Shown in pieces: positions 17,837 through 63,508 of a stretch of DNA of 64,000 bases (positions are counted from its first letter, which is position 1; each line of letters begins with the position of its first letter). The notes under the pieces were generated by a model that saw only the letters and a list, made by a program, of their open reading frames with translations, made no database searches and was not told where the DNA came from. The DNA lies in assembly GCA_031254335.1 (NCBI GenBank), contig JAIRUP010000014.1, positions 3,043-67,042 of the forward strand, read 5' to 3'. A program made the position numbers and the translations under genes. Origin of the DNA: Rickettsiales bacterium. GTDB lineage: Bacteria; Pseudomonadota; Alphaproteobacteria; Rs-D84.

Positions 17837-19193
17837 TTACAATATGCCCCGCCGCCGCCAGTTTGTCGCGCAATTCATCGGATTTCTTCCAATCCTTCGC
17901 GGCGCGCGCGGCGGCGCGCTGGTCCAGCAACGCCTGAATCTCGGGTGTGATTTCCGCGGCAGGCCTCGTCGCGCTCTCTACAAGGCGAAGTCCCAAAAGC
18001 TCGTCCGCATATTTTGCGACCGCAAGTTTCACCGCGTCCGGTTCGTCCGATTTCAGAACCGCCTGCAATTCGGCCAGCACATTCGCCGTATCAAGATTAT
18101 TCGATATGATGTCTAATAATTTATTGTTTATTTCAATACTTCTTCCTTCTTCCTTCTGCCTTCTGCCTTTCTCCATCGCCGCCGCCACCTTGCGCACAAG
18201 ATTCCTGTATCCGGCGGCGGCGGCGTCCAACGCCTCCCAGGAAAATTCCAGCTGGCTTTTGTAATGCCCGGTCAAAAGGAGATAGCGGTATGCCATCGGG
18301 TCATAGCCTTTGGATTTAAGCAGCCCAAGGGTCAGAAATTCGCCTTTCGACTTGCTCATCTTGCCGCCCTTTTCGTTCAGGAACTCGCCGTGCAGCCAGT
18401 AATTAACCCAAGGCGCGCCGACGATTGGCTCGGACTGCGCGATTTCGTTGGTGTGATGAACCTTGATGTGGTCGATTCCGCCGGTGTGAATGTCGAAATG
18501 CGCGCCCAGGGTCTCCGCGCTCATGACGCTGCATTCGATGTGCCAGCCGGGAAAGCCCCTGCCCCACGGGCTGTCCCATTCCATGTCGCGCTTGGCGTCG
18601 GTTGGGGAAAATTTCCAAAGGGCGAAATCGGTCGGATTTTTTTTGCCGGCGTCGGATACGCGCGCGCCGCCGCGCAGCTCGTCCAAATTCTGATGGCCCA
18701 GCTTTCCGTAATCGGGGAATTTGGAAGTGTCGTAATAAATGCCGTCCCCGGGAATCTCGTAAGTGTATCCCAGGTCTTCCAGCTTTTTAACCCATGCGAT
18801 TTGCTGGGCGATGTAATCGGTCGCGCGCGGCATGTTGGCCGGCTCCGGAATGTTCAGGTCGCGCAAATCGCCGCGAAAGGCGGCCTCGTAGAATTTGGCG
18901 ATGTCCCAGGCGGTCTTTCCCTCGCGCCGCGCGCCCTTTTGCATCTTGTCTTCGCCGGCGTCCTCGTCGGACACAAGGTGTCCGACATCGGTTATGTTTA
19001 TGGTGTTGTTGACTCTGTATCCGTTGGCGATGAACATCCGGCGAAGTATGTCGGAATTGACGAACGCGCGAAGGTTCCCGATGTGGGCGAAGTCGTAGAC
19101 GGTGGGCCCGCATGAATAGATGGAAACTTGGCCCGGAACGCGCGGCTTGAACTCTTCGGCTTTAAGCGACATCGTGTTGTAAAGTTTTATCAT
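17820..19193 (-). CDS. cysS: Cysteinyl-tRNA synthetase
   Basis: HIGH motif (CGPTVYDFAHIGN) and KMSKS are present. The C-terminal region carries an in-frame insertion (MEKGRRQKEEGRSIEINNKLLDI) encoded by the TTCTTCC tail plus an AT-rich module at 18106-18172. Confidence 0.9.
   Translation of the reverse strand: MIKLYNTMSLKAEEFKPRVPGQVSIYSCGPTVYDFAHIGNLRAFVNSDILRRMFIANGYRVNNTINITDVGHLVSDEDAGEDKMQKGARREGKTAWDIAKFYEAAFRGDLRDLNIPEPANMPRATDYIAQQIAWVKKLEDLGYTYEIPGDGIYYDTSKFPDYGKLGHQNLDELRGGARVSDAGKKNPTDFALWKFSPTDAKRDMEWDSPWGRGFPGWHIECSVMSAETLGAHFDIHTGGIDHIKVHHTNEIAQSEPIVGAPWVNYWLHGEFLNEKGGKMSKSKGEFLTLGLLKSKGYDPMAYRYLLLTGHYKSQLEFSWEALDAAAAGYRNLVRKVAAAMEKGRRQKEEGRSIEINNKLLDIISNNLDTANVLAELQAVLKSDEPDAVKLAVAKYADELLGLRLVESATRPAAEITPEIQALLDQRAAARAAKDWKKSDELRDKLAAAGHIVNDQKI
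18106..18172 (+). repeat. AT-rich module plus TTCTTCCTTCTTCCTTCTGCC tail repeat, in-frame inside cysS
   Basis: Same tail motif as the B-family tails. Confidence 0.65.
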
Positions 19194-20159: not shown

Positions 20160-21425
20160 GTGAATGTTAAAAAGCTGATATTGGTCGGAATGATGGCGAT
20201 TGTGCCGTTCGGCGCGTTTGCGGTGCCGTCTGCGCAGCTGGCCCAGCCGACGGCCGGAACGCGCGGAAACGCGGGCAAGGCGCAAAGCTATCGCAACCAG
20301 CAAATCCAGCAGTATTATATGGTGAACACGCCCGATGTCGATACGGCGTGCCGCGCCAAGATTTACCAGTGCCTCGCGGACTATTGCGGCGATATGACCA
20401 TGCTTCCGGGAACCTATCAGGGCCGGTGCGATTTCGTCTCCGAGGGAGAGCTTTATAATTGGGCGCTGTTATGCATACAGAAAGATTCCACGGATTTGAT
20501 GCCCCAGTATAATGTCTATACCAAGGCGCAGGGGAAACCCGTGAATACGGCGGCGCGCCTGTGTCCGACCTATATCCAGCAGGAAATTATGTCTTACCTT
20601 TCGATGATGAACATGTCGGAAAAATTGGCCCAGCAGCGGTCAAGCGGCTGCATGGATGCGCGGGCGGAATTGGCGGCGGCCCTGTCGTGCCATGAAACGA
20701 CGATGATTTACGCGATGGAAAGTTCCAGCATGCTTGAATCTATGCTGACGGACAGTTGCGGCTCGGGCGTGTTGGGCGGAAGCCGCGCTATGGTCCAGAA
20801 ATTCTTGAATGCCGGAAATGTCGGCGGCAATGTGTGGGGTTGGGTGGACAAGATTATAAGCATGGACGCGCTGTTCGGGTCTGAAAAGGCGCGCGGCTGG
20901 GAAAGCGCGGTTGACGCGATTGCGGCGGGCTATGTGAACAGAATGAACGCGGCTTGCGGCGAAAATATGCAGTTCCAAGCGGTGCAAAGATATGTCGATA
21001 CCAGCCCGACATTGTTGCAACAAGCGGCGACTGCGTTCGTAAGCTCGCAGTTTAACGCGACGACCGACCCGAAGCAATTGACGGCGGGCGGCAAAGGCGG
21101 CGCGGCGGCGTTCCCGTCGGCCGGCGGCGCGGGCGCGGCAAGCTCTGCGAAACAGCTGATTCTGACGGTGAACTCGAATTACGCGGTGTATGATTTCAAT
21201 ACGGCGGCCCAGGTCGTGCAAGCGGGGCTTACGAATCCTATAACGACGCAGAATCCGTTTTTGACATCGCAGCAAATGAATACTATGCAGAACGCCAGAA
21301 AAACTGGAACGAAAGTATTTTTGCTTAAAGATAATTCAAGGTGCTTCATAATCGCGGTCGACGCATTGACCGAGGCCGAGAACAACCTGCTAGCCCCCCA
21401 CCTCGCCACCTGTTCCTATAATTGA
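20160..21425 (+). CDS. Secreted protein paralogous to the N-terminal domain of the giant 54-4802 protein
   Basis: GTG start with an AAGAGGG ribosome-binding site and a signal peptide (MMAIVPFGAFA). The segment TPDVDTACRAKIYQCLADYCGD aligns with TPYGKCRASYFSCMDEFCAN in the giant protein. Confidence 0.7.
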   Translation: MNVKKLILVGMMAIVPFGAFAVPSAQLAQPTAGTRGNAGKAQSYRNQQIQQYYMVNTPDVDTACRAKIYQCLADYCGDMTMLPGTYQGRCDFVSEGELYNWALLCIQKDSTDLMPQYNVYTKAQGKPVNTAARLCPTYIQQEIMSYLSMMNMSEKLAQQRSSGCMDARAELAAALSCHETTMIYAMESSSMLESMLTDSCGSGVLGGSRAMVQKFLNAGNVGGNVWGWVDKIISMDALFGSEKARGWESAVDAIAAGYVNRMNAACGENMQFQAVQRYVDTSPTLLQQAATAFVSSQFNATTDPKQLTAGGKGGAAAFPSAGGAGAASSAKQLILTVNSNYAVYDFNTAAQVVQAGLTNPITTQNPFLTSQQMNTMQNARKTGTKVFLLKDNSRCFIIAVDALTEAENNLLAPHLATCSYN

Positions 21426-21446: not shown

Positions 21447-21515
21447 TTATCCCGGACATAGCAGGTAATAAAAACTGTCTATTATAATAGACACAATCCT
21501 TCTTCCCTCTTCCTT
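21447..21515 (+). repeat. Degenerate family-B element with a perfect palindrome TGTCTATTATAATAGACA and a TTCTTCC tail
   Basis: Modular similarity to B copies. Confidence 0.5.
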
Positions 21516-21521
21516 TTTCCC

Positions 21522-21549
21522 TTGCACTTCCCCAAACACCTGCTATAAT
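21522..21549 (+). promoter_or_regulatory. Candidate sigma70 promoter (TTGCAC-N16-TATAAT) for rho, followed by a C-rich, G-poor leader
   Basis: -35 at 21522-21527 and -10 at 21544-21549. The leader 21555-21616 is C-rich and rut-like. Confidence 0.45.
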
Positions 21550-32235: not shown

Positions 32236-32395
32236 TGATTAACTCCCCCCCCTTGCGGGGGAGTCGTCGCGCCGGCGCGAAGCGCAGGCGGACGGTGGGG
32301 GGGGGTCATCCCTCGACGGTTCGCGCCGAAGACGGACGACTCATCCCTTCTTGCTTCTATCTTGAAAATATACCCCTTCCCTTTCATTAAGTCAA
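32236..32395 (+). repeat. Family-A element plus CATCCCTTCTT-type tail in the dnaE 5' leader
   Basis: AACTCCCCCCCCTTGCGGGGGAGTCG..GGTGGGGGGGGGTCA followed by a pyrimidine-rich tail. Confidence 0.7.
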
Positions 32396-32409
32396 CACCC
32401 TTTAACCGC

Positions 32410-32437
32410 TTGATTCCCCACAAATATTTGATATAAT
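32410..32437 (+). promoter_or_regulatory. Candidate sigma70 promoter (TTGATT-N16-TATAAT), plus strand, divergent from dnaE
   Basis: -35 at 32410-32415 and -10 at 32432-32437. Confidence 0.45.
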
Positions 32438-32443
32438 TAACAA

Positions 32444-32585
32444 AGCGCGGGCGAATTGCCTGCGTTGGGGTGTGAAGACCTTTTCAAATGACTCTTGCTT
32501 CGGCAGGAGGTCGGCGCAAGCCGAACTATCCATTTGAATAGTCTTCACCCTCCTGCCACTTATTTTATAAGTGGCATTTTTTTTA
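32444..32585 (+). ncRNA. Candidate small RNA of about 140 nt: promoter, two mutually exclusive helices, then a strong intrinsic terminator
   Basis: Helix A pairs GTGAAGAC (32472) with GTCTTCAC (32541). Helix B pairs GGCAGGAGG (32502) with CCTCCTGCC (32549). The terminator hairpin GCCACTTA-TTTTA-TAAGTGGC is at 32555-32575 and is followed by 8 T. Confidence 0.35.
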
Positions 32586-32603
32586 ACCGAACAGGATGAA
32601 TCT

Positions 32604-32729
32604 ATGGCATACAAGAAAGCACCCGCCACACATACGGTCGTGAAGGAACTGAGAAAGTTCATGGATACCTTTTCGTTTTCCAAAACTCCAAAAAGAATTG
32701 AAATCAAAAAGTTATTGTTGCTCCAATGA
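32604..32729 (+). CDS. Possible 41-codon basic peptide (MAYKKAPATHTVVKELRKFMDTFSFSKTPKRIEIKKLLLLQ)
   Basis: ATG with an AGGATGA ribosome-binding site upstream, just after the terminator. It is not in the ORF track because it is shorter than 60 aa. Confidence 0.2.
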   Translation: MAYKKAPATHTVVKELRKFMDTFSFSKTPKRIEIKKLLLLQ

Positions 32730-32752
32730 GAATAAATGCAACACTTTTCATA

Positions 32753-33541
32753 TCATGCCTCCGCAACCTTGTCAATAATCGTCCTAATATCATGATTGTG
32801 GCTCTTGCTTAGGATTCCGAAGATTTTCAGCATTTCAAGGAATATCCCGATGTTCTTGGAGTCGATTATGAAATCGGCGGTTTCTTTTGCTCTCGCTGTT
32901 CGTCCGATAATGGAAGAATTAAGCTCGGAAATTCTAAACCATACTCTCACGATTGCACCAATTCCTTGCGCATAGCCTCGGGGCAACAACTCTATGTCCA
33001 ATTTATAATTTTTATTAATCTCTTTATATAATCGGATATAACGCTTTACAGATTTGAACTCTTCAAAACCGAATTCCATATTGAAAATTATTTTCGTTCC
33101 GCGGCCGGTTCTTGCGGGTTTGTCCTGCTTTAACTTGGAACGCAGAGATTCTTCAACAAAATCCGATGTTTTGGATATTTCTCCTTTTATCTTTGATAAT
33201 TCGTTCTTGGAAACAAGACCTGTTTGGCATGCATAAAAAATTATGTCCGATAATTCCCATGATTTAAGTTTTTTGTCGCCAAGCTCCAACTCAAGCGCGC
33301 CATTAATATCTTTATCGTATCCGTCTGCCTTTGTGTCGCCCAAAGATGTCTTTGATTTTACAGCGTATCCTATCATCCAATCGCACCACGCATTTTTAGG
33401 AACGCTCTCGTCGCGGACTTTCACAATAGGATAATCAGAGTCCTTGTCATCCTTGCGCAAAATAAGATTATACCTCGCCGCCCGGACCGGGAAGGTCATG
33501 ATAATTCGCTTGTTCGCATTATCAATCTTTTTTATCCACAT
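32753..33541 (-). CDS. Hypothetical protein of 262 aa in the low-GC island, translationally coupled to the DNA methyltransferase; a restriction endonuclease partner is conceivable (ELELGDKK could be a PD-(D/E)xK-like motif)
   Basis: It overlaps the methyltransferase 3' end by 20 nt. The region is AT-rich relative to its flanks and has no recognisable domain. Confidence 0.35.
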   Translation of the reverse strand: MWIKKIDNANKRIIMTFPVRAARYNLILRKDDKDSDYPIVKVRDESVPKNAWCDWMIGYAVKSKTSLGDTKADGYDKDINGALELELGDKKLKSWELSDIIFYACQTGLVSKNELSKIKGEISKTSDFVEESLRSKLKQDKPARTGRGTKIIFNMEFGFEEFKSVKRYIRLYKEINKNYKLDIELLPRGYAQGIGAIVRVWFRISELNSSIIGRTARAKETADFIIDSKNIGIFLEMLKIFGILSKSHNHDIRTIIDKVAEA

Positions 33542-34658
33542 AGTGTTCCCCTAACAAATTCTTGAAATATGAATGTATCAGCAGGTCTTCGGACACATTG
33601 TCGTCGCCGTAATCCGCCGCCAAATGCTTCAAGAATCCCCACTTGCGCAAGCTCTTTCTGACAAAAGCGTCCCGCAGGCGGTCGAACGCCGGATAATCTA
33701 TCATGACATCGCTGTTCCCGAAATAGTATGGAATGTTCGGGATATATTCCTTGAACACATCGGCATAGCAATAAAACGCCAGCTTGCCCTTCGGAACGCG
33801 GATGGAGTTATAAACTTCGTTCTCGATAAAAGTCCGCGTGCGTTTAAGGGCGTTTATGTCGCGCATGGTCCAAAAGTGCGCGACAAAATCTTTTTCATTT
33901 TTGTTCGGATATTTCGTTATATAGTTGCTTAGCTTGTCAAACTGCCCAATTCGGAATCGCTTGTTGTCTTTTGTCTTGAAAGCGTGATTGCAAATTGAAT
34001 CGTAAGTCATGCCGTTCCCGCGTTTATACAACGCAATCACTATCGGGAATTGGGTCGCTTTGGAAGTCGCCGAAAACTCTCCGCTGCTGATGACAAGGCT
34101 GTCAATCAAGCTGTAATTATCCTTAAATTTCCCAAGCCCCTCGAAGTTCGCCTTCTTAATCAGATAGGACAAAGGATGCAGAACGCAAATATAATCCGCA
34201 GCCAACTTGTCATAGGACAGCAAAAACGAAATCCCCAAATCGCGGTGTTTCAAGTCCGGGTCTATCTCGCAATTCTCGCGTTTTATGCCGTTGCGTATGA
34301 TAGAGGTCGTGTCGTTATAAGGCGGATTCCCGACAATTATCAATTTGTCGGAATCGCCCAAGCCATACTGCCCGCGCCCGACATCTTTCAAGCTGTTGTG
34401 ATGAAATAATCGGCGATTATCCGTGTTTTTTTCGGCCTGAGCCAAAGCCGTCTTATCGCAATCCGCGCCGATAGAGCCGGGCATGACAAGAAAATTTCCA
34501 TACCCGCAAGAAGTATCCAAAACAGTATATTCCGCCGCGTTTCCTATATTTTTGCGAAGCATGTCATAAACGATTGATACGACGCTTCCCGGCGTGTAAT
34601 AACTGCCGTAATTTATGGTGTCTTCGTATCCAAGATGAGATTGTTCCCGCCTTAACAT
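33522..34658 (-). CDS. Gamma-class N6-adenine DNA methyltransferase (TaqI-like motif order X-I-IV)
   Basis: Motif X reads YYTPGSVVSIVYDML. Motif I reads VLDTSCGYGNFLV. Motif IV reads IIVGNPPYN. Confidence 0.8.
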   Translation of the reverse strand: MLRREQSHLGYEDTINYGSYYTPGSVVSIVYDMLRKNIGNAAEYTVLDTSCGYGNFLVMPGSIGADCDKTALAQAEKNTDNRRLFHHNSLKDVGRGQYGLGDSDKLIIVGNPPYNDTTSIIRNGIKRENCEIDPDLKHRDLGISFLLSYDKLAADYICVLHPLSYLIKKANFEGLGKFKDNYSLIDSLVISSGEFSATSKATQFPIVIALYKRGNGMTYDSICNHAFKTKDNKRFRIGQFDKLSNYITKYPNKNEKDFVAHFWTMRDINALKRTRTFIENEVYNSIRVPKGKLAFYCYADVFKEYIPNIPYYFGNSDVMIDYPAFDRLRDAFVRKSLRKWGFLKHLAADYGDDNVSEDLLIHSYFKNLLGEHYVDKKD

Positions 34659-37415: not shown

Positions 37416-37486
37416 TATAAATAACTCCCCCCTTGCGGGGGAGTCGAAATTTTCAAGGAAAATTTCGGTGAGTGGGGGGGGGTCAA
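37416..37486 (+). repeat. Family-A element; it overlaps the stop of the 37483-37764 gene
   Basis: ACTCCCCCCTTGCGGGGGAGTCGAAATTTTCAAGGAAAATTTCGGTGAGTGGGGGGGGGTCA. Confidence 0.75.
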
Positions 37487-37767: not shown

Positions 37768-37820
37768 CCATCCCCTTTATTGTCATGGTCGGGCTTGACC
37801 CGACCATCCAGGTAATTGTC
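37768..37820 (+). repeat. Family-B hairpin element (TTGTCATGGTCGGGCTTGACCCGACCATCCAGGTAAT)
   Basis: Near-identical to the 6111 copy. Confidence 0.8.
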
Positions 37821-38226: not shown

Positions 38227-38282
38227 CGCGATTTCGATGGATAATTTTAATAAAACTCAAAAAATAATTAGGGGCGTCGCGT

Positions 38283-38385
38283 TTCCCCCTCCCCTCCACC
38301 GTCATGCCAGCCCCCCCCCCCCTCCTCCGCCGTCATGCTGGCGAAGGCCAGCATCCAGTAATAAGTCCTGCGTTAGCAGGTTAAT
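38283..38385 (+). repeat. Family-B variant (hairpins TGCTGGCGAAGGCCAGCA and TCCTGCGTTAGCAGG) containing a poly-C12 tract at 38311-38322
   Basis: Same module order as B copies: hairpin, CCAGTAATAA, hairpin 2. Confidence 0.55.
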
Positions 38386-38387
38386 AA

Positions 38388-38556
38388 ACTCTAAAAAAGT
38401 TTAGCGCAATCGCGTTTTTGATGGATAATCGTCCAATACCGAGAAAAACCGACCGACGCTGGCCTTGGTCGCCGCCGCGGCGTGTCGGGTTTGCGACGGT
38501 AGTGGGTGATTTGACCCGGCGGACGGAAAAGTCCGCCCTGTTTTTTGTCCGCTTAT
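38388..38556 (+). repeat. Full-length family-D element of about 165 nt: conserved 5' box, long hairpin with copy-specific stem, box AGTGGGYGATTTR, and a terminal hairpin plus T-run
   Basis: Aligns with 51581-51740, 61036-61206 and 63322-63478. Short forms lie at 58240-58300, 38243-38283 and 6905-6945. Confidence 0.7.
38517..38548 (+). terminator. Intrinsic terminator formed by the 3' hairpin of the family-D element
   Basis: Hairpin GGCGGAC-GGAAAA-GTCCGCC followed by TTTTTT. Confidence 0.5.
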
Positions 38557-38565
38557 TTTTTGTCC

Positions 38566-38958
38566 TTACTCCGCCACAGGCTGGGTCTCGTCGGCTTCTT
38601 CTTCGACGACGGCGACCTCTTCGGCGGTCGCGGCGGGAATGACATCGCCGGACAATTCGGCGTCGATGGATTCAAGCATCTGGGTCTCTTCCGCGCTGTG
38701 TTCGATGTCTTTTTCTTCCTGGAATTCCTGGGTTGTGGGCTTCTTATAGCTTTGCACCAATTCGCGGCGAAGCCCCGGAATGTCGATTTTTCCGCTGGCG
38801 ATTTCGCGCAAGGCGCGCACGGTGTTCCTGTCCTTGGATTCGGGCAGAACGGAAGGAATCCCTGCGTTCAGGTCCCGCACGCGCTGGGCGGCAAGCAGGT
38901 TCAGTTCGTATTTGTTGTCCACATATTGTAAAGTGTCGCTGGTGGTTGTCCGTGCCAT
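38566..38958 (-). CDS. rpoZ: DNA-directed RNA polymerase omega subunit
   Basis: The N-terminus (NKYELNLLAAQRVRDL) matches the RpoZ signature, and there is an acidic C-terminal extension. Confidence 0.75.
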   Translation of the reverse strand: MARTTTSDTLQYVDNKYELNLLAAQRVRDLNAGIPSVLPESKDRNTVRALREIASGKIDIPGLRRELVQSYKKPTTQEFQEEKDIEHSAEETQMLESIDAELSGDVIPAATAEEVAVVEEEADETQPVAE

Positions 38959-39034: not shown

Positions 39035-40321
39035 ATGCCTGTAATCGTCAAATCTTTCGGGTGCCGCCTGAACGCGCTCGAGGCCGCGAAAATCGAAATC
39101 GTGGCGTCGCGTGCGGGCCTGACCGACGCGCTGATATTCAATACCTGCGCGGTGACAGGCGAAGCGGAAGCCCAGGCCCGGCAAGCCATAAGGAAAGCGG
39201 CAAGGGAAAACCCTGGCGCGCGGATTTTCGTGGTGGGCTGCGGGGCGGACAGGAACCCGGACGGATTTGCGAAGCTGCCCAATGTCGCGGCGGTGATAAA
39301 AAACGCCGACAAATTCACCCCCGAATCATATAACCCAACTCCCCCCTTGCGGGGGAGTCGGCAAGGCGAAGCCGAGCCGGTGGGGGGTCAAAACATAACA
39401 ATCGAAAAATGCGGGCAGTTTTCAAAGGGTTTCGTCCAAATCCAAACGGGCTGCAACTATGCCTGCACATATTGTATTGTCCATACATTGCGCGGCCCCG
39501 CGCGCTCATTTGACTACGACGCAATCCTGGCGCAAACAAAACAGCTGACTTCAAGCGGTTATTCCGAAATCACCCTTACCGGCGTGGACATCGCCTCCTA
39601 CAAGTTCCCCTCCCCTGTCATGGTCGGGCAAGGACCCGACCATCCAGGTCATAAATCCCGCGATAGCGGGTTATTATCACTCATCCAAAAACTCTTGACC
39701 GACGACCCCGACATCCAACGCCTCCGCCTGTCATCCCTTGACCCGGCGCACGACTGGTCGGATTTAATCAAACTTATGAAAGAAAACCCGCGGCTTATGC
39801 CGCACCTTCACCTGTCCATGCAGTCGGGAAGCGACGAAATCCTGCGCCTTATGGCCCGCCGCCACCGCATCGCCGACATATTGAAACTCCCCCCTTGCGG
39901 GAAAGTCGGCGGCTTTGCCGCCGGTGGGGGGTCAATCACCTTCTCCGTGGACATCATAACCGGCTTCCCGGGCGAAACGGACGAACTCTTCCAAGAAACC
40001 CTAGCGACCCTCGAAAAGCTCCGCCCTATAAGAATCCACGCATTCCCGTTTTCGCCGCGCCCCGGCACGCCGGCGGCGACATTTCCAAACCAAGTCCCGA
40101 AATCGGTGGCGAAAGACCGGGTGCGGGAATTAAACGCGCTTGGGACTAAATTCCTAAATGAATTCATGGTTTCCCAACTTGGCCGCCCCACCCAAGTCCT
40201 AATGGAAAGGGGCGGCGTGGGGCGCACCCCGAACGATATAGAGTTTCTTTTTGACGCGCCCGAAGGGGCGATTTTGACCCTTACCCCGACCGAAATAAAA
40301 GACGCAAAATTCAAGGCCTAA
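39035..40321 (+). CDS. MiaB-family radical-SAM tRNA/ribosomal methylthiotransferase (MtaB/RimO-like), carrying three in-frame repeat insertions
   Basis: It has an N-terminal MTTase domain (KSFGCRLNALEAAKIE), the CxxxCxxC motif IQTGCNYACTYCIV, and a TRAM-like C-terminus. Insertions lie at 39327-39393 (A), 39603-39682 (B) and 39881-39934 (A). Confidence 0.8.
   Translation: MPVIVKSFGCRLNALEAAKIEIVASRAGLTDALIFNTCAVTGEAEAQARQAIRKAARENPGARIFVVGCGADRNPDGFAKLPNVAAVIKNADKFTPESYNPTPPLRGSRQGEAEPVGGQNITIEKCGQFSKGFVQIQTGCNYACTYCIVHTLRGPARSFDYDAILAQTKQLTSSGYSEITLTGVDIASYKFPSPVMVGQGPDHPGHKSRDSGLLSLIQKLLTDDPDIQRLRLSSLDPAHDWSDLIKLMKENPRLMPHLHLSMQSGSDEILRLMARRHRIADILKLPPCGKVGGFAAGGGSITFSVDIITGFPGETDELFQETLATLEKLRPIRIHAFPFSPRPGTPAATFPNQVPKSVAKDRVRELNALGTKFLNEFMVSQLGRPTQVLMERGGVGRTPNDIEFLFDAPEGAILTLTPTEIKDAKFKA
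39327..39393 (+). repeat. Family-A element in-frame in the methylthiotransferase gene
   Basis: AACTCCCCCCTTGCGGGGGAGTCGGCAAGGCGAAGCCGAGCCGGTGGGGGGTCA. Confidence 0.8.
39603..39682 (+). repeat. Family-B element in-frame in the methylthiotransferase gene (PSPVMVGQGPDHPGHKSRDSGLLSL)
   Basis: TGTCATGGTCGGGCAAGGACCCGACCATCCAGGTCATAAATCCCGCGATAGCGGGTT. Confidence 0.8.
39881..39934 (+). repeat. Family-A element in-frame in the methylthiotransferase gene
   Basis: CTCCCCCCTTGCGGGAAAGTCGGCGGCTTTGCCGCCGGTGGGGGGTCA. Confidence 0.8.
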
Positions 40322-40443: not shown

Positions 40444-40530
40444 ATTTCATGTGAAATGGCGCGCTCCGCGCACCATTTCACATTATAATTGTCATGGTCG
40501 GGCCAGGACCCGACCATCCAGGTTATAATC
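40444..40530 (+). repeat. Palindrome (TGTGAAATGGCGCGC / GCGCACCATTTCACA) followed by a family-B hairpin
   Basis: Read directly. The B hairpin is TTGTCATGGTCGGGCCAGGACCCGACCATCCAGGTTAT. Confidence 0.7.
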
Positions 40531-51269: not shown

Positions 51270-51500
51270 TCAGTTTTTTAGGCGGTCTTTTCTTTTCAGA
51301 AGCTGGGCCGTGCGGTAAATCTGGATGAAAATCAGCGCGGCGTTCAGGAACATTATGGAATACGAGCCGATTAGCGCGCCGTATATCACGAACAGGGCCG
51401 CGCCGACCGCGTTGATGGACCTTATATAAAGCCGCGTCTTCATTAAAAACGAAGTTATTACGAACAGCGACGCCGCAATTCCGATTATCTCATAGTTCAT
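51270..51500 (-). CDS. Small integral membrane protein of 76 aa
   Basis: Two TM helices, with a GAGGGA ribosome-binding site. Confidence 0.45.
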   Translation of the reverse strand: MNYEIIGIAASLFVITSFLMKTRLYIRSINAVGAALFVIYGALIGSYSIMFLNAALIFIQIYRTAQLLKRKDRLKN

Positions 51501-51511
51501 GGTTCCCTCGT

Positions 51512-51580
51512 TATATTGTGTCGCCTACGGCGACGGTTATTACCTGGGTCCTCGGGTCAAGCCCGAGGATGACAATTTTT
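51512..51580 (-). repeat. Family-B element in inverted orientation (hairpin 2 TGTCGCCTACGGCGACGG, then ATTACCTGGGTCCTCGGGTCAAGCCCGAGGATGACAAT)
   Basis: Reverse complement of the B consensus. Confidence 0.7.
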
Positions 51581-51740
51581 AATAAGGCCAAAAAAATCTT
51601 ACCGAGGTCGCGTTTTCGAGGATAAATCGTTCAATGCGCGGGAAAACCGACCCGAGTCTGGACTTGACGGTCCGCGAGGTGTCGGTTTTCCAAGCAAGTG
51701 GGCGATTTAGACCGAAAACGAAAAACCGAGGTTATGATTT
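51581..51740 (+). repeat. Full-length family-D element
   Basis: It has the 5' box CGCGTTTTCGAGGATAAATCG. The long hairpin pairs GGAAAACCGAC with GTCGGTTTTCC. It also has the box AGTGGGCGATTTAGACC. Confidence 0.7.
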
Positions 51741-51749
51741 TTTATCTTA

Positions 51750-52121
51750 TTAATTGCCGGTGCCGGAAGCCTGGACGACATCGTAGTTTTTGATTTTATC
51801 CTTGGCGTCGAACTTCACATACAGCGCCGTTATGTCATAGCTGAAATCGTCCTGGAAAAGCGAGATGATGGGGCCTGCAATCGGAACCAGCCAAATGTGC
51901 CTCCCGCTGCCGTCGACGCGGCTGTATTCATAGACTTCGTTCCCGTCCTTCTTGAACATGAGCGAGGGCGAGCCGTAAAGGTCGCGCACATCGGCCTTGG
52001 TGCTCGCGTCCTTCATCTGCTTGTCGATTTTGGACTGGCTGCTTCCCAGTTTCTCGTTGCCGATTGTGTTCGTGCAGGCCGCGGCACTAAGGGCAAGAAT
52101 TGCTATGATTAGGTTTCTCAT
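51750..52121 (-). CDS. Outer-membrane lipoprotein, BamE (SmpA/OmlA)-like
   Basis: Lipobox LSAAAC, and the pattern TKADVRDLYGSPSLM....NEVYEY resembles BamE. Confidence 0.45.
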   Translation of the reverse strand: MRNLIIAILALSAAACTNTIGNEKLGSSQSKIDKQMKDASTKADVRDLYGSPSLMFKKDGNEVYEYSRVDGSGRHIWLVPIAGPIISLFQDDFSYDITALYVKFDAKDKIKNYDVVQASGTGN

Positions 52122-52810
52122 TATCGGACCTCTTTTTCAAGCGATTGCAGTTTTTTATCGTCCAGTTCGGCGCGGGTCTTGGCGCGGACCGAGGCGAAGC
52201 GCACGATGAAGTCCTTGCCGAATTCCTCCTTCCATTCGCGGCGCTGCTCGTCGCCGATATTGTCGGAATCGTCTTCAAGTTTGAAGCTCGGCATTTTCAG
52301 GCTTCCGTCCTTGTTGGTCGCGCCCTTTTCGGGTTTTTCCATCTGGAAATGGCCGAGATAGACGACTTCCTGGGGTTTCACTGCGAAGGTTATCACCTTG
52401 TCCTGCTCGAAATGCTCGTGCGTTATGACATGGACGGTGGTCACGGTCATATTGCCCTGCCTTTGCGTGGTCGTATAAACATAGCGCAGATAAAGGTTCG
52501 TTACCTCGTATTCGCCGATGGGAAGCATGGCGGTCGCGAATTCGTCGCCGCCCAATTTCGTTTTCACGAAATACATCTCGCCGGTCTGCTTGTTCTTGAA
52601 GGACATTATATTGTCGTAGACGGTTCCGAAGAATCCGTCGCTGGAAAGGTTGTCGGACATCGAAAGTATGATTTGCCCGCGGCCGCCCTGCTCGAATATT
52701 TCGGAATGGTGTTGCAGCGACGCGTTCAGGAGGTTGCCCTCGCCCGGAGTTTTCGGGAACGAGCATGCGCCCGCCATAAGCGCGCAGCAGAGTAAGACCA
52801 GTTTTTTCAT
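52121..52810 (-). CDS. Hypothetical lipoprotein of 229 aa
   Basis: Signal peptide plus lipobox LMAGAC. Confidence 0.5.
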   Translation of the reverse strand: MKKLVLLCCALMAGACSFPKTPGEGNLLNASLQHHSEIFEQGGRGQIILSMSDNLSSDGFFGTVYDNIMSFKNKQTGEMYFVKTKLGGDEFATAMLPIGEYEVTNLYLRYVYTTTQRQGNMTVTTVHVITHEHFEQDKVITFAVKPQEVVYLGHFQMEKPEKGATNKDGSLKMPSFKLEDDSDNIGDEQRREWKEEFGKDFIVRFASVRAKTRAELDDKKLQSLEKEVR

Positions 52811-52823
52811 ATTTAGCCCTTTT

Positions 52824-55328
52824 TTATTCGTCGGACCATGTTATTTCAGGCCCGGACTCTAATCCCATCTTGAACTCTAATTCCGAAACATTCAAGACAT
52901 TTTTTATATCCGCTTCGGCCGCGCGCAAATCCGCGTCGTCCTTGATTGCCAGCCTTTTGATTCCCTTTTTCATCGAGAAATTGTTTTCGGATTTTTTGCC
53001 GCGGACGAAGGACACCAGCCCGCGGACTTTCTCGTATATTTCCGCGCCGGGCAGCGGCCATTCCCATTTCTTCCAAAGCGCGGGATGAAGGCAGAGGTGG
53101 ATTGATTTTTGGATGTCGTTTTTATTGTCCAGCGACCATTCCTTGAATTTTTGATAGGGGTGCGCCTGGAAAATTTCCTCGGCTATGAAGGGCATGAAGG
53201 GCGCGGACATCGCGGCGAATTCCAGAATCGCGTTCCGCAAATGTTTAAGCGCGGAATCGTCGCCGGCGTATGCGCGGCCTTTCACGATTTCGAGATAATT
53301 GTCGCAGAAATCCCAGAACGCCTGTTCCGTCGCTATAAGCGCGCCGGTATGGTCGTTTTGCTCGAAATATTTTTTGGATTCTTCCGCGGCCTGCTCCAAT
53401 TTTTTCGCATAGGCCAAATCGACGGGATTGTCGGACGGCAGTATCGCTATGTTTTTCGTGTCGCCGGCGAATCCATAGACGAACTTGGCGGCGTTGAAGA
53501 ACTTCATGACCAGCTTTCGCTTTTGCTCCATGATTTTTTCGTCCGCGATTCCGTCGGTCCCCCACTTCGCGCTGGCGGCCCATACGCGGATTGCGTCCGC
53601 GCCGAACTTGTCCACAAGCTCTTTCGGGACGACGACATTGCCTTTGGATTTCGACATCTTCTTCCTGTCCGGGTCAAGCACGAATCCGTTAATCCAAAGC
53701 TGTTCCCACGGAAGTTCGCCCCCGAAGTTCAGCATTGTTATAAGGACGGTGCAGAAATCCCAGGTCCTTATTATGTCATGCCCGTTCCAGCGCGCGCTGA
53801 ACGGCACCGACAGATTTTTCGCGTCGGTTTTCGCCATTGCGATTGCGGGCGTCAGCGCGCTTGTCGCCCAAGTGTCTATGACATCGGGGTCGGCGGCGAA
53901 GCCGTTCGGTTGGTTTCGTTGCGCTTCGGAGAATCCGGCGGGAACATCGGTCGCCGGGTCGCACGGAAGCTTGTCGGATAAAATCGGTTCGTCGTGAATC
54001 GGACTGCCCTTCGCGTCCAGTTTATACCAGACCGGGAACGGCACGCCGAAGAACCGCTGGCGCGAAATCAGCCAGTCCTGGTTTATTCCGTCGGCCCAGT
54101 TTATGAAGCGCGCCTTCATGTGTTCGGGCGTCCATTTGATTTTTCCGGCGGCCTGGACCATCGCCTCTTTCTTGTCCATCATGGATACGAACCATTGGCG
54201 CGAGGACACGAACTCTATCGGCGAGTCGCCCTTCTCGTAGAATTTCACGGCGTGCGTTATTGGTTTCGGCTCGCCGATTAAATCGCCGGATTCGCGCAGC
54301 ATTTCCACGATTTTCTTCCGAGCCTGCTTGACGCGAAGGCCTTCCAGTTCCGGGACGTCGAAGATTTTTCCGTCGCGCCCGATGATTTGTTTAAGGGGCA
54401 TTTTATGCGTCTTCCAAAAATTCACATCTTCCTGGTCGCCGAAGGTGCAGACCATCATGATGCCGGTGCCTTTTTCGGGATTCGCGTGTTCTGACGGCAT
54501 GATTGGGACTTCCGTCTTGAATATCGGACTGGTCGCGGTCTTGCCGAAGAATTTTTTATAGCGCAAATCGTCGGGGTGCGCGACGATTGCGATAATCGCG
54601 GGAAGAAGTTCCGGCCGCGTCGTGGCGATTGTGAATTCGTCGCTTCCGCACTTGAATCTGATGTCGTGGAAATGTCCGGCGATTTCCTTGTCCTCGATTT
54701 CGGCCTGGGCGACGGCGGTTTGGAAATCGACATCCCACATGGTCGGGGCCTCGACGGATTTCACATTGCCGGACTTGTATAGTTTGATGAAGGATTCCTG
54801 CGCAAGCCGTATAGCGTCCGGCGAAATCGTGGAATACATCAGCGACCAGTCGTATGACATCCCGGTTCCGCGGAAGATATTCTCGAATATCTTCTCGTCC
54901 TGGTCCACAAGGGCGCGGCAATGCTCTATGAAGTTCCGGCGCGATACGGGCGTCTGCGGCGCGTCGAACTTATCCTTATGCTCGGCCTTGAAATTCGGGT
55001 CGTATGCAAGGGTCGGGTCGCACTTTATATTGAAGTAGTTCTGCACGCGCCGTTCGGTCGGAAGGCCGTTGTCGTCCCAGCCGATTGGGAAGAAGATGTT
55101 TTTGCCAAGCATGCGCTGAAAGCGCGCGCCGATGTCCGCCTGGGTGTATCCGAAGATGTGGCCGATATGAAGCGAGCCGGAAACGGTCGGCGGCGGGGTG
55201 TCCAGGGCGAATGTTTCCGCGCGCGGACGGGCCGGGTCGAACTTATAAATCTGTTCTTTGTCCCAAAAGGAAGTCCATCGGTTTTCGATTGCCTGATGGT
55301 CGTATCTGTCGTCTAGTTTGTGTGTCAT
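52824..55328 (-). CDS. valS: Valyl-tRNA synthetase
   Basis: HIGH motif (SGSLHIGH) and KMSKS are present. At 834 aa it is a compact form. Confidence 0.9.
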   Translation of the reverse strand: MTHKLDDRYDHQAIENRWTSFWDKEQIYKFDPARPRAETFALDTPPPTVSGSLHIGHIFGYTQADIGARFQRMLGKNIFFPIGWDDNGLPTERRVQNYFNIKCDPTLAYDPNFKAEHKDKFDAPQTPVSRRNFIEHCRALVDQDEKIFENIFRGTGMSYDWSLMYSTISPDAIRLAQESFIKLYKSGNVKSVEAPTMWDVDFQTAVAQAEIEDKEIAGHFHDIRFKCGSDEFTIATTRPELLPAIIAIVAHPDDLRYKKFFGKTATSPIFKTEVPIMPSEHANPEKGTGIMMVCTFGDQEDVNFWKTHKMPLKQIIGRDGKIFDVPELEGLRVKQARKKIVEMLRESGDLIGEPKPITHAVKFYEKGDSPIEFVSSRQWFVSMMDKKEAMVQAAGKIKWTPEHMKARFINWADGINQDWLISRQRFFGVPFPVWYKLDAKGSPIHDEPILSDKLPCDPATDVPAGFSEAQRNQPNGFAADPDVIDTWATSALTPAIAMAKTDAKNLSVPFSARWNGHDIIRTWDFCTVLITMLNFGGELPWEQLWINGFVLDPDRKKMSKSKGNVVVPKELVDKFGADAIRVWAASAKWGTDGIADEKIMEQKRKLVMKFFNAAKFVYGFAGDTKNIAILPSDNPVDLAYAKKLEQAAEESKKYFEQNDHTGALIATEQAFWDFCDNYLEIVKGRAYAGDDSALKHLRNAILEFAAMSAPFMPFIAEEIFQAHPYQKFKEWSLDNKNDIQKSIHLCLHPALWKKWEWPLPGAEIYEKVRGLVSFVRGKKSENNFSMKKGIKRLAIKDDADLRAAEADIKNVLNVSELEFKMGLESGPEITWSDE

Positions 55329-55340
55329 GGCTTATTTTTA

Positions 55341-58216
<2,876 letters not shown>

Positions 58217-58239
58217 TTAAAATTAAATTAATAAGCTCA

Positions 58240-58300
58240 TAATGAACTCAAAAAATAATTAGGCCAATCGCGTTTTCGAGAATAAAACGCGATTGGCCTT
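58240..58300 (+). repeat. Short-form family-D element: 15-bp perfect hairpin GGCCAATCGCGTTTT / AAAACGCGATTGGCC flanked by A-run and T-run
   Basis: It sits between the fabI stop and the ligA start, and is terminator-like for fabI on the minus strand. Confidence 0.65.
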
Positions 58301-59110
58301 TTATTTTTTGGCCGCTAATATAAGGTCTTTGGCTTCATTGGATACCGAGCCGGTCGAATGATAGCCGCAGTCGACATGGTGTATTTCGCCCGTAACGCCG
58401 CTCGACAAATCGCTGAACATATAAAGTCCCGCGCCCGCGACATCGTCCAGCGTTATGTTTCTGCGCATCGGCGTCAAGAGCTCGTTCAAATCCAAAAGCG
58501 ACTTGAAGTCCCCGACCCCGGACGAGGCCAGCGTGCGGATGGGTCCGGCGGAAATCGCGTTCACGCGGATGTTCTTCGGTCCGCAGTCGGCGGCCAAATA
58601 TCTGACGGAAGAATCCAAGGCGGATTTGGCGACGCCCATCACATTGTAATTCGGAATCGATTTCTCGCCGCCGAAATATGTGAGGGTCAGAATGCTTCCG
58701 CCGTTCTTCATAAGCGGGACGCTTCGGCGCGTTATGTCGACCAGCGAATAGACCGAAATGTCCATCGTGTTCTTGAAATTTTCGCGCGTGGTGTTCGCGT
58801 AATATTCGCCGGTAAGCTCGGACTTGTCGGAAAACGCGATGGCGTGGAGGACGAAGTCCAGGCCGCCCCATTCTTTCCCTATGGCGCCGAAAAGCGCGTC
58901 CATCTGCGCGTCGTTCTGGACATTCGTTTCCATGACGAATTTCGCGCCGATGGAATCGGCCAACGGCTGCACGCGCTTTTCAAGCTGCGGGATTCCGTAG
59001 GGCATGGCGATTTGCGCGCCGTTGTCCGCGCAGATTTTGGCGATGGCCCAGGCCATCGACATATCGTTCGCTACGCCCATTATAAGGCCGCGCTTTCCTT
59101 TCAATAACAT
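58301..59110 (-). CDS. fabI: Enoyl-[acyl-carrier-protein] reductase (NADH)
   Basis: SDR fold with the N-terminus GKRGLIMGVANDMS and the catalytic Y..K. Confidence 0.9.
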   Translation of the reverse strand: MLLKGKRGLIMGVANDMSMAWAIAKICADNGAQIAMPYGIPQLEKRVQPLADSIGAKFVMETNVQNDAQMDALFGAIGKEWGGLDFVLHAIAFSDKSELTGEYYANTTRENFKNTMDISVYSLVDITRRSVPLMKNGGSILTLTYFGGEKSIPNYNVMGVAKSALDSSVRYLAADCGPKNIRVNAISAGPIRTLASSGVGDFKSLLDLNELLTPMRRNITLDDVAGAGLYMFSDLSSGVTGEIHHVDCGYHSTGSVSNEAKDLILAAKK

Positions 59111-61035: not shown

Positions 61036-61206
61036 AATTGATAAACTAAAAAATAATTGGCGCAATCGCAATTTCGATGACAAACCGCCGAGGACCAAGA
61101 AAAACAGGTCGGCGTCTGGACTTACTCGTCCGCGACGACCTGTTTTTCGCCGTGTCATTCGGCGGTTTGGCGCGAAATTGAAAAATTGCGCTTTTATTTT
61201 TTGCCT
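61036..61206 (+). repeat. Full-length family-D element
   Basis: The long hairpin pairs GAAAAACAGGTCG with CGACCTGTTTTTC. The terminal hairpin GCGCGAAATT/AATTGCGC is followed by a T-run. Confidence 0.7.
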
Positions 61207-63310: not shown

Positions 63311-63321
63311 TTGAATTTACT

Positions 63322-63478: not shown

Positions 63479-63508
63479 TACGAAAGAAATTGTGATATAG
63501 TTCCTATC

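Follow-up and report, generated by a model that had tools for sequence, protein, structure and literature searches.

Family D, a lineage-restricted family of stop-codon-anchored imperfect palindromes with a conserved rod-like fold

Relation to described repeats and terminators

SPRITE elements are interspersed repeats of less than 200 bp with AAAA/TTTT termini. Their long duplex, which runs into a U-rich tract, exceeds that of ordinary terminators, and they lie near the 3' termini of coding sequences, with enrichment between convergent genes (PMC3049150). The repeats described here, family D, resemble them in each of these traits; as in SPRITE, neither a target-site duplication nor a parent IS was found. 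SPRITE, however, is one loosely folded, AT-rich duplex of 18 bp (28% GC), whereas family D is a 54-bp five-helix rod of 38-55% GC, in which deep divergence goes with compensatory change and whose position, exactly on stop codons, comes with a fixed antisense polarity. The SPRITE host belongs to another phylum; the two families are set apart by description, and a sequence relation is not expected.

ERIC (IRU), of about 127 bp, is likewise an imperfect palindrome over its whole length. Its short and long variants arise via internal deletions and insertions, a further likeness to family D, while we know of no report of stop-codon anchoring for ERIC. Its copies occur in both orientations and are far more alike in sequence than those of family D; the element is confined to Enterobacteriaceae and Vibrionaceae and is again set apart by description. 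Both are found in intergenic DNA, and ERIC is transcribed, often lies at gene 3' ends and changes transcript fate (PMC10969869).

REP/BIME sequences, and REPINs with their RAYT transposases, are, like family D, palindromes outside genes, located at the ends of operons and between cistrons. Classical reports on REP include stem-preserving compensatory changes, and REPs that lie within about 15 nt of a stop codon in some cases affect the gene upstream. REP units measure 20-40 nt and REPINs are doublets, whereas family D is one continuous 155-nt rod with no repeated sub-unit; REP also has many near-identical copies, unlike family D. A 5' GTAG and a cognate RAYT define REP, whereas in family D GTAG is internal only and present in 6 of 12 copies, and a RAYT that would serve it is not known.

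Rickettsia palindromic elements (RPEs), palindromic repeats of 100-150 bp in Rickettsiales-type alphaproteobacteria, may contribute codons to host genes, as family D does in the tails of an AcrB-family gene and of an ABC gene (copy L094). RPEs enter ORFs in frame and code for a conserved peptide (PMC10969869). Unlike them, family D is extragenic and touches ORFs at their last codons only, which places it outside the RPE definition.

Integron attC sites follow directly after the stop codon of the preceding gene and carry conserved extrahelical bases or bulges. They keep structure rather than sequence, which is highly diverged, and the strand that folds and recombines is complementary to the coding strand of the cassette. 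Family D is alike in all these respects, but the attC core sites RYYYAAC/GTTRRRY are absent: its ends are TAATAAACTCAAAAAA ... TTTTTTGTCCTTATTA, and neither strand fits. It is also longer than attC (57-141 bp) and, rather than forming a cassette array beside an intI gene, is scattered among housekeeping genes of both orientations with no integrase gene nearby.

Ordinary bidirectional intrinsic terminators, finally, place an A-tract, a GC-containing hairpin and a T-tract directly 3' of stop codons. The short form described below and the hairpins that relatives carry at the same sites are exactly of this type. Their stems of 5-14 bp come without family-wide boxes, fixed bulges or a 100-nt inner rod, unlike the full copies of family D.

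Against Rfam 15, only three tRNAs reach the gathering threshold in the window, the whole 64-kb stretch of DNA analysed here; permissive E-value scans with two copies gave NmsRb as the best match, whose 23.6 bits fall short of its threshold of 52. Plasmid and phage collections searched by BLAST with two copies returned no match, and a broader two-box pattern has none in viral contigs. A three-box IUPAC scan yielded no match in a genome collection and five chance matches, in coding DNA, in a metagenome collection; this pattern misses real copies in the L007 genome, which is part of the scanned collection, so its zeros set no bound on the distribution of the family. Using nhmmer for L091 and a covariance model for the remaining loci, we found no copy in more distant relatives with LigA or RpoZ 63-75% identical (L008, L090/L091, L097, L100 and L102), nor in 12 kb more of a genome with 84% LigA identity (L098), nor at 78 distant ligA loci that served as negative controls. 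Family D, whose members are imperfect palindromes over their whole length, is restricted to one lineage and has not been described before.

Copies, fold and compensatory change

The window, DNA of an uncultured alphaproteobacterium, holds four full copies in a common orientation, all on the + strand, just where the preliminary description had located them (Table 1). A covariance model run over the 64 kb recovers these four, at E = 1.6e-35, 3.8e-31, 1.4e-30 and 2.6e-10, together with the short form at 58249-58310, and nothing further. The three-box pattern matches three times, against 0.00 matches expected from 100 shuffles. Copies lie 2-13 kb apart, and their neighbours are housekeeping genes on both strands (leuS, ligA, fabI, rpoZ, secA).

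Table 1 Family D in the window, with the helices of the reference copy c61036
Feature	Position	Strand	Evidence or pairing partner
Reference full copy c61036	61038-61209	+	covariance model, 160.7 bits, E 1.6e-35
c61036 helix 1, 5' arm (A-run)	61050-61056	+	pairs with 61196-61202 (T-run)
c61036 helix 2, 5' arm GGCGCAAT	61059-61066	+	pairs with 61185-61192
c61036 helix 3, 5' arm CAATTTCGAT	61069-61078	+	pairs with 61172-61180
c61036 helix 4, 5' arm CAAACCGCCGA	61081-61091	+	pairs with 61159-61169 (TCGGCGGTTTG)
c61036 helix 5 and apical stem-loop	61099-61148	+	61099-61111 with 61136-61148; stem-loop 61112-61135
Full copy c51581	51576-51752	+	covariance model, 142.2 bits
Full copy c63322	63306-63476	+	covariance model, 139.7 bits
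Rearranged copy c38388	38378-38568	+	covariance model, 53.7 bits, E 2.6e-10
Short form	58236-58312	+	covariance model, 30 bits, both strands; MFE -34, z about -9, both strands
5' arm remnant (flank, A-run, TTAGCGCAATCGCGTTTTCGAG)	6892-6940	+	sequence
5' fragment TTTTAATAAAACTCAAAAAATAATTAGGGGCGTCGCGTTT, then C-rich tracts	38246-38284	+	sequence

Each whole copy is a single imperfect palindrome: five stacked helices of ~54 bp, closed by the helix between A-run and T-run, make up a rod of ~155 nt, or ~190 nt counting the flanks. The order is TAATAA-ACTC-A6, then the five helices with fixed small internal loops and an A-rich bulge, then T6-GTCC-TTATTA. The conserved boxes, earlier thought to flank a long hairpin, turn out to be the outer helices of one end-to-end rod: AGTGGGCGATTT is the partner of AAATCGTCCAAT, CGAAAACG near the 3' end that of the TCGCGTTTTCG box, and the T-run that of the A-run. 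The conserved terminal motifs ACTC and GTCC, beside the A/T runs, do not pair; TAATAA/TTATTA stand outside them. Terminal inverted repeats, a criterion for MITEs, are present, as the entire element is inverted, including TAATAA...TTATTA and the A/T runs. Three copies fold with an MFE between -72 and -81 kcal/mol (z from -7 to -10).

In c61036, the 5' flank TTGATAAAC and the A-run lead into the five-helix rod, which is followed by the T-run and GCCTTTA. Other copies show G-C replacements in helix 1: AAAGAATCC/GGATTCTTT, which copy L094 has in place of A-run/T-run, and AAAAACCAC/GTGGTTTTT. Across copies, 6 of the 8 pairs of helix 2 and 17 of the 19 of helix 5 are altered on both sides. Helix 3 covaries as GTTTTC/GAAAAC, AAAATC/GATTTT and AATTTC/GAAATT, and helix 4 of other copies is AAATCGTCCA / TGGGCGATTT. 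At 61181-61184, c61036 has the conserved, unpaired A-rich bulge (G)AAAA(A); bulge and internal loops are kept in all ten full copies, and the apical loop is the least conserved part of the element.

The rearranged copy c38388 keeps the 5' flank and helices 4-5. It has lost the 3' arms of helices 1-3 and bears a private hairpin, GGCGGAC/GTCCGCC (38518-38537), followed by T-runs, instead. A separate terminal hairpin with T-run, which had been ascribed to every copy, is found in this one only. The short form is built of the 5' flank, an A-run, a perfect 16-bp hairpin AGGCCAATCGCGTTTT/AAAACGCGATTGGCCT and a T-run; its hairpin equals helices 2-3 minus the bulge. Two short forms had been proposed, at 58240-58300 and 6905-6945: the first stands, as the basal helices (58249-58310), while the second comprises a 5' arm only (6900-6940), within the last codons of an AcrB-family ORF.

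Eight further copies occur in two related metagenome-assembled genomes. Covariation was measured on ten copies from the three genomes, with 500 shuffles and slid alignments as controls. Standard pairs occupy 93.9% of pair cells and both sides have changed at 41 of 54 pairs, at an identity of 52-78% among copies (78% for the closest pair). None of the 500 shuffles matches these values, and the slid controls are 36-48% paired. The stems originally quoted are correct and their pairing is kept; a check of the further copies for uncompensated stem mismatches was negative. These figures bear out the earlier view that compensatory change here marks a structure under selection. They likewise favour a structured ncRNA or a REP-like regulatory/terminator family over junk, leaving the first two undivided. 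The whole-length rod, the stop-codon anchoring and the strand asymmetry are additions to that description.

The copies have diverged to about 60% identity but preserve the fold, so the shape as such is of use to the cell, probably where transcripts end. As a natural example of compensatory evolution the family is unusually clean: sequences differ by ~40%, yet a 54-bp rod keeps 94% of its base pairs, in a host lineage known only from metagenomes.

Quasipalindrome correction by template switching is an established mutational process, and it might have restored arm complementarity in functionless palindromic DNA in place of selection. The short form, a perfect 16-bp palindrome without the bulge, is what templated correction would give. 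Such correction would erase bulge and loops, so the retention of the asymmetric bulge and internal loops in 10/10 full copies at 52-78% identity counts against it. It also predicts neither the asymmetry of G.U over A.C nor the fixed stop-codon position and polarity reported below, and we consider it very improbable.

The spacer between the DUF378 and lipoprotein genes, home of c61036, also carries a copy in the genome with 84% LigA identity; this orthologue is 66% identical to c61036 and forms the same rod. Presence, absence and orientation vary at the orthologous rpoZ, SecA, PBP and ABC sites, with polarity reversed at the ABC site; copies coincide with synteny breaks, and the terminators of relatives at the rpoZ and fabI sites are plain hairpins. 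The element has thus persisted at one orthologous site and been gained or lost at others.

This variability and the synteny breaks would suit a site that acts as DNA, the sense hairpin being the substrate of a single-stranded-DNA transposase or recombinase, as for REPIN/RAYT, IS200/IS605-derived MITEs or attC. The conserved non-pairing terminal motifs resemble element ends, and anchoring could come from target choice (e.g. insertion beside TAA) and purging of intragenic insertions. However, near-identical copies are absent, and a closest pair of only 78% identity gives no hint of recent mobility. Every old copy, and the orthologous pair too, has kept its pairing, as decaying selfish DNA would not be expected to. 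No consistent flanking direct repeat marks a target-site duplication, which may have decayed in copies this old. Neither a transposase nor an integrase gene is found among the window ORFs scanned, nor a Y1 transposase in Pfam listings for ~215 kb of the three genomes, and the ends lack attC cores.

Anchoring on stop codons and strand asymmetry

In 13 of 14 copies, the T-run end overlaps the stop codon of an opposite-strand gene or comes within 0-7 nt of it; the distance is 12 nt in the remaining one. Read on the strand of the abutted gene, a conserved TAAGGAC lies right at the stop codon. At c61036, TTA within the terminal GCCTTTA is the stop codon of the DUF378 gene (61207-61392, -); on the other side, the lipoprotein gene (-) begins with an ATG at 61033, ~20 nt past the T-run start on the gene strand, and no promoter was found in the gap. 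At c51581, TTA at 51750-51752 ends a 123-aa gene (51750-52121, -), which, like the 229-aa gene also beside this copy, has no Pfam match. The rpoZ stop codon (38566-38568, -) is where GTCCTTA of c38388 ends, that of fabI (58301-58303, -) falls inside the T-run of the short form, and the AcrB-family ORF (6910-9951, -) reads antisense through the remnant at 6892-6940 to stop at 6910-6912.

Copy c63322 is the sole one in the same sense as the gene preceding it, an ABC transporter gene with its stop codon at 63308-63310 (+); a promoter-like site of an MFS gene follows at 63473-63501. The opposite polarity of this copy runs against the explanation that we rank first below.

Two ORFs, those with the AcrB tail and the L094 ABC tail, take their last codons from a copy. 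Copies are otherwise extragenic and contain no conserved ORF; a conserved small ORF or toxin was rejected, six-frame translations having neither a conserved start codon nor a hydrophobic peptide.

With the next gene beginning 7-20 nt past it, the element has to lie within a gene-strand transcript. This spacing favours a cis element of the abutted gene's mRNA only, in which the reverse-complement rod would serve as terminator or attenuator and as a barrier to 3'-to-5' exonucleases, like REP, ERIC and SPRITE. Such a role would agree with the anchoring and fixed polarity of 13 of 14 copies, with the A-run, rod and U-run present on the gene strand of each copy, and with TAAGGAC, which would fall within the gene's mRNA. 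It has published analogues in SPRITE, which lies close to 3' termini (PMC3049150), and in ERIC, which alters transcript levels from 3' ends (PMC10969869).

Strand asymmetry speaks against it. The element's own (sense) strand has a lower MFE than the antisense strand in 12/12 copies, under RNA and DNA parameters alike: the gene-strand rod folds worse every time. Paired columns show G.U over A.C at 22:4 and A.G over C.U at 13:1, and what is tolerated on the sense strand would become C.A and C.U mismatches in the gene's mRNA. A C-to-T bias on coding or lagging-template strands is known, but predicts the opposite sign. The private hairpin of c38388 has its T-run in the sense direction only, with no U-run toward rpoZ. 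Overall, we find it unlikely that the element serves the abutted gene's own mRNA only. In 11 of 12 copies, purines are also in excess on the sense strand.

The strand under selection appears to be the converging one, which is antisense to the abutted gene. Because both strands yield very stable rods (-57 to -86 kcal/mol for full copies), the polarity of termination stays a prediction.

A site acting as DNA would accommodate the asymmetry, which persists under DNA parameters, and has its parallel in integrons, with their recombining strand and structure-only conservation. However, if genes are co-oriented with replication, the sense strand would be the leading-strand template and little exposed, and GC skew does not follow orientation. 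Its sign agrees with the element strand at two loci and disagrees at three, and a replication-linked orientation is not supported. We hold the transposase or recombinase substrate, together with its account of anchoring by target choice and purging, to be doubtful.

A proposed role at gene ends

We rank first, with a probability of about 0.4, a gene-end module akin to REP, ERIC and SPRITE that acts as a transcribed hairpin, a two-way terminator or insulator. The host would keep the palindromic repeat as a two-way intrinsic terminator or insulator and as a 3'-end hairpin, and the selected molecule would be the hairpin RNA made by transcription converging on the gene 3' end. This RNA might begin in the conserved, AT-rich 5' flank and form a self-contained hairpin transcript of ~160 nt, or it might be a product of stray antisense read-in; either would be halted at the T-run, with 0-7 nt left to the stop codon of the abutted gene. 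The gene's own transcript would bear the weaker reverse-complement rod, leading to attenuation or to read-through into the next gene.

Terminator anatomy is present on both strands: in nearly all copies, a GC-containing basal helix has T5-7 after it and A5-7 before it. The stem, U-tract and opposite A-tract of intrinsic terminators are found just 3' of the stop codon, and the short form is a plain two-way terminator-like hairpin. From these features, transcription of either strand, terminator activity and a promoter are predicted. Sigma-70 scans around three copies detected no promoter at a consistent position; the candidate -10 (TAAACT / CATAAT, in the 5' flank) is weak and the -35 is not conserved. 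Promoters directed outward along the gene strand (TTGCGC-17-TATAAT at 6905, TTGGCC-17-CATTAT at 58245) suit only some copies and were rejected as a general feature.

The 54-bp rod far exceeds the needs of a terminator, so the inner helices probably have a further function. Beyond the T-run, the conserved GTCCTT carries information of up to 1.6 bits per position; as it would be absent from a sense transcript ending in the T-run, it indicates a role at the level of the DNA or of the gene's mRNA.

The same sense asymmetry, with A-rich unpaired positions and a terminator-like 3' end, would also befit an RNA gene. Copies might then encode sibling small RNAs of ~160 nt that act in trans, each with its own promoter and terminator and a role unconnected with the neighbouring genes, for instance as a protein sponge or a regulator processed by RNase III. 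Loop and bulge sequences are conserved, and the family is multi-copy and lineage-restricted. Independent RNA genes, however, need not sit 0-7 nt from a stop codon in 13 of 14 cases, and no conserved promoter was found near the copies. The apical loop, usually the seed region, is the least conserved part, and the rod is almost fully paired, leaving little single strand for targets. We judge such RNAs to be quite improbable.

A broader idea, to which we attach a low probability, sees in the elements more than passive terminators and takes the strand antisense to each abutted gene as the active molecule of a host-maintained system, made of either convergent hairpin RNAs or attC-like sites. In the former version, stop-codon-anchored rod RNAs of ~160 nt would cap gene 3' ends, perfectly complementary to the neighbour's 3' UTR; this, if true, would permit RNase III-type control of mRNA ends and of read-through. 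In the latter, a single-stranded-DNA site outside integrons would let a recombinase shuffle gene modules of the core genome, which would account for the synteny breaks that coincide with copies. Do bacteria maintain dedicated structured modules to control convergent or antisense transcription where genes end, or is this a mobile or recombination site of stranded DNA? Stop-codon anchoring, and a better-folding strand that is antisense to the anchored gene, make the question testable.

In practice, the repeats disrupt the assembly of these genomes from short reads; in annotation they give rise to spurious ORFs and append C-terminal tails to proteins.

Copies and architecture of Family D

The four full copies of Family D, a rod-shaped repeat of about 155 nt, lie where a preliminary description had placed them, all on the plus strand, and share the boxes it quoted. 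A three-box pattern built from these copies has three matches in the window, against 0.00 expected from 100 dinucleotide shuffles. The covariance model suggested as a check recovers all four (E = 1.6e-35, 3.8e-31, 1.4e-30 and 2.6e-10); over the 64 kb, with filters off, it also picks up one short form and no further match. At gathering thresholds, Rfam finds three tRNAs only in the window, and a scan of two copies at a permissive E-value returned nothing relevant.

The boxes do exist, but as boxes flanking a hairpin they were incompletely described: each copy is one end-to-end rod. On the plus strand it begins with a conserved 5′ flank, (T)TAATAAACTC, and an A-run that forms helix 1 with the T-run at the other end. 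There follow helix 2 of the GGCGCAAT type, a two-base step facing a conserved A-rich bulge, (G)AAAA(A), helix 3 (CRWWWTCG), a small internal loop, helix 4 (AAATCGTCCA / TGGGCGATTT), a purine-rich internal loop, the variable helix 5, whose stem was the one quoted initially, and a short apical stem-loop. The 3′ arms are succeeded by the T-run and by G(T/C)C(C/T)TTA(TTA). Three window copies have minimum free energies of −72 to −81 kcal/mol (z = −7 to −10). In copy 38388 the 5′ half and helices 4-5 are intact, and the 3′ arms of helices 1-3 are gone; a private hairpin, GGCGGAC/GTCCGCC, with T-runs stands in their place.

Of two short forms announced at 58240-58300 and 6905-6945, the former is indeed a hairpin: helices 2-3 alone, set between A-run and T-run, make a perfect palindrome of 16 bp that lacks the bulge. 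The latter is only the 5′ arm. Another 5′ fragment precedes copy 38388. No ORF is conserved within the copies; a 50-aa 'gene' called at locus L094 is an ORF inside one of them.

The window has a match in Logan, to a contig from SRR14710927, and its LigA shares 100% identity with a protein of an NCBI MAG labelled Rickettsiales bacterium. Eight more copies were found with nhmmer and the covariance model in two relatives: one in the closest, a Rickettsiales-labelled MAG with LigA 84% identical (loci L088, L092 and L098), and seven in the next, the alphaproteobacterial MAG Emb289P3bin18 with LigA 76% identical (L007, L094 and L101), five of these on the same strand within 19 kb. The three genomes, sampled over about 215 kb, supplied 12 copies in all. 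None was seen in about 100 kb of sequence from relatives with 63-75% identity, in 78 distant ligA loci serving as negative controls, in plasmid and phage collections, or in viral contigs. In genome and metagenome collections our first patterns gave no real match, the pattern also missing the true Emb289P3bin18 copies. Short-read assemblies break inside Family D, with three contig ends within copies.

Covariation and strand asymmetry

In the 10-copy alignment, which was fitted to the model, 93.9% of pair cells hold standard pairs, against 36-48% in controls slid by 1-3 columns; both sides change in 41 of the 54 pairs (112 cells), against 11-20 pairs in the controls. None of 500 shuffles matches any observed covariation measure. 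All helices contribute, even that of the A- and T-runs (AAAGAATCC/GGATTCTTT, AAAAACCAC/GTGGTTTTT). A MAFFT-only alignment of five copies is concordant (91.4% paired, 30 of 54 pairs), as is an alignment-free comparison of folding energies. The further copies show none of the uncompensated mismatches that, by the preliminary description, would have refuted it. Since the copies are only 52-78% identical and cluster little by genome, they must be old and nearly independent.

Unexpectedly, the two strands are not equivalent. The element's own strand, ending in the T-run, folds better than its complement in 12 of 12 copies, by 1.7-13.9 kcal/mol with RNA parameters and in the same direction with DNA parameters. 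Paired columns contain G.U-type and A.C-type cells at 22:4 (14 and 4 distinct pairs), and A.G and C.U cells at 13:1; the purine excess on the sense strand reaches +17 per copy and is positive in 11 of 12. Selection therefore appears to act on the strand that is antisense to the gene abutted. The known deamination biases of coding or lagging-template strands predict the reverse sign, and at five loci GC skew does not track element orientation. This asymmetry contradicts a cis element acting only in the gene's own mRNA, which we hold to be unlikely. Neutral palindromes kept symmetrical by template-switch mutation are the least credible origin, in view of the same asymmetry and of the bulge and internal loops, retained in 10 of 10 copies.

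Gene ends and orthologous sites

The T-run ends 0-7 nt from, or over, an opposite-strand stop codon in 13 of the 14 copies with a readable 3′ end, and the conserved gene-strand motif TAA(TAA)GGAC-A6 includes that codon. The anchored genes are rpoZ, a 123-aa gene, a DUF378 gene, fabI and an AcrB-family gene in the window; secA, three unnamed genes (one with transglycosylase/transpeptidase Pfam domains) and a TrbI-domain gene in L101; and a DUF378 gene in L088, an ABC transporter in L094 and a 411-aa gene in L007. The exception, copy 63322, has the same sense as the preceding ABC transporter, whose stop codon lies 12 nt before the A-run. The data as a whole establish Family D as a structured element under purifying selection, tied to gene ends. 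Sibling small RNAs acting in trans would leave the anchoring unexplained, and we consider them quite improbable.

The next gene can start very close to a copy: the lipoprotein ATG (61033) follows the T-run start by some 20 nt on the gene strand, and one gene in L101 begins 7 nt after its copy. Such genes must be transcribed through the element or from a start within it. No consistent sigma-70-like promoter was found upstream of the copies; a weak −10 (TAAACT / CATAAT) may lie in the conserved 5′ flank, with no conserved −35.

The reading we rank first, at a probability of about 0.4, is a transcribed gene-end module: a REP/ERIC/SPRITE-like palindrome that the host may keep as a bidirectional terminator or as an insulator. 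Selection would favour a hairpin RNA that arises when transcription converges on the abutted gene and is halted at the T-run, shortly ahead of that gene's stop codon; in the transcript of the gene itself a weaker rod would form, which can be read through. Such a module would explain why the copies are anchored, why the strands differ, why the rearranged copy 38388 has its terminator on the sense strand only and why read-through is required. It leaves unexplained why GTCCTT is conserved past the T-run, why no clear promoter is present and why the rod is so long.

Orthologous sites differ. A copy occupies the DUF378-lipoprotein spacer of the window and that of the 84% genome; the two are 66% identical and form the same rod. 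The rpoZ site in three relatives and the fabI site in L007 have plain hairpin terminators, the secA and PBP sites vary between genomes, and at the ABC site L094 has a copy of opposite polarity, L092 no copy at all. Elements have thus persisted for long at some positions and been gained or lost at others. Such turnover, with the conserved non-pairing termini, would suit a REPIN- or attC-like site that a transposase or recombinase uses as single-stranded DNA; this is doubtful, as no young copies are seen, the old ones are intact, no consistent target-site duplication flanks the copies (one could have decayed in elements so old) and no transposase or integrase gene was found among the window ORFs scanned.

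The L007 fabI terminator, AAATCGCCCGC-GGAA-GCGGGCGATTT between A- and T-runs, resembles helix 4 alone, its model score not being significant (12.7 bits, E 1.7). Synteny breaks coincide with Family D copies in three places. A 229-aa gene, the 123-aa gene and copy 51581 are absent between leuS and a 76-aa gene in L007; L088 has ArgJ between fabI and ligA, where the window has the short form; and in L095 the copy that comes after the ABC gene is itself followed by a large serine recombinase and by DNA methylases.

Family D repeats also donate C-terminal codons and stop codons to ORFs. The AcrB-family ORF ends in ...FDFLSKTRLR*, from the antisense of the 5′ arm, its Pfam match ending at residue 996 of 1013, and the L094 ABC transporter ORF extends 19 nt into its copy.

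Known families and neighbouring repeats

In function and position, Family D comes nearest to SPRITE of S. pneumoniae, an over-long terminator-like duplex with AAAA/TTTT termini near 3′ termini, without target-site duplication or parent IS (PMC3049150). In architecture it comes nearest to ERIC, an imperfect palindrome over its whole length, which lies at 3′ ends and alters transcript fate (PMC10969869). REP/REPIN, RPE and attC each miss at least one defining feature tested. Family D is therefore a new member of the group of interspersed extragenic palindromes, presumably unrelated to the others in sequence; its deep compensatory divergence, exact stop-codon anchoring and antisense-strand folding bias are distinctive.

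Coordinates of repeats and other features, in the window unless a locus is named
Feature	Coordinates	Strand
Family D, full copies	38388-38556; 51581-51740; 61036-61206; 63322-63478	+
Family D, short form	58249-58310	
Family D, 5′ arm	6900-6940	
Family D, 5′ fragment	38254-38284	
Private hairpin of copy 38388	38518-38537	
TTGTCAT hairpins	4870-4906; 6113-6149; 37780-37816; 39616-39654; 40490-40528	+
TTGTCAT hairpins	51548-51575; 58180-58208	reverse
Third repeat family	113-162; 13065-13114; 13427-13476; 32242-32266; 37422-37446; 39336-39385; 39884-39933	
Pyrimidine runs	4927-4963; 6170-6206; 13291-13341; 18133-18169; 21493-21529; 32337-32364	
C and CT tracts	38285-38335	
AcrB-family ORF	6910-6963 (C-terminal end)	-
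229-aa and 123-aa genes, copy 51581	51500-52824	
Low-GC3 island	32402-34658	
R.Pab1-like endonuclease ORF	32753-33541	-
1582-aa ORF	54-4802	+
fabI terminator	L007 8806-8852	
leuS to 76-aa gene	L007 15364-15382	
ArgJ between fabI and ligA	L088 3355-4554	
Recombinase and methylases	L095 12455-14038	
ABC transporter ORF in copy	L094 11806-11827	
50-aa 'gene' call	L094 11881-12033	
Contig ends within copies	L087/L001 start; L007 end 20289-20407; L101 start 1-141	

Other repeats occur in the window. A second hairpin family reads TTGTCAT-stem-CTTGA-stem′-ATCCAGGTAAT(AA), its 7-bp stems varying with pairing kept; the two reverse members lie directly 5′ of Family D copies 51581 and 58245. A third family has AACTCCCCCCTTGCGGGGGAGTCG at its start and GGTGGGGGGTC at its end, with a second variable hairpin between. 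Pyrimidine runs of the CTTCTTCCTTCTTCC type recur in intergenic DNA, often adjoining TTGTCAT hairpins. Long C and CT tracts (ccccctcccctcc...gcccccccccccccctcctccg) separate the Family D 5′ fragment from copy 38388, an intergenic region where at least three repeat types pile up.

An island of low GC3 (0.45-0.58, against about 0.7 elsewhere), which includes the R.Pab1-like restriction endonuclease ORF, was probably acquired horizontally. The 1582-aa ORF is almost without Pfam match, with a weak Ephrin_rec_like hit only.
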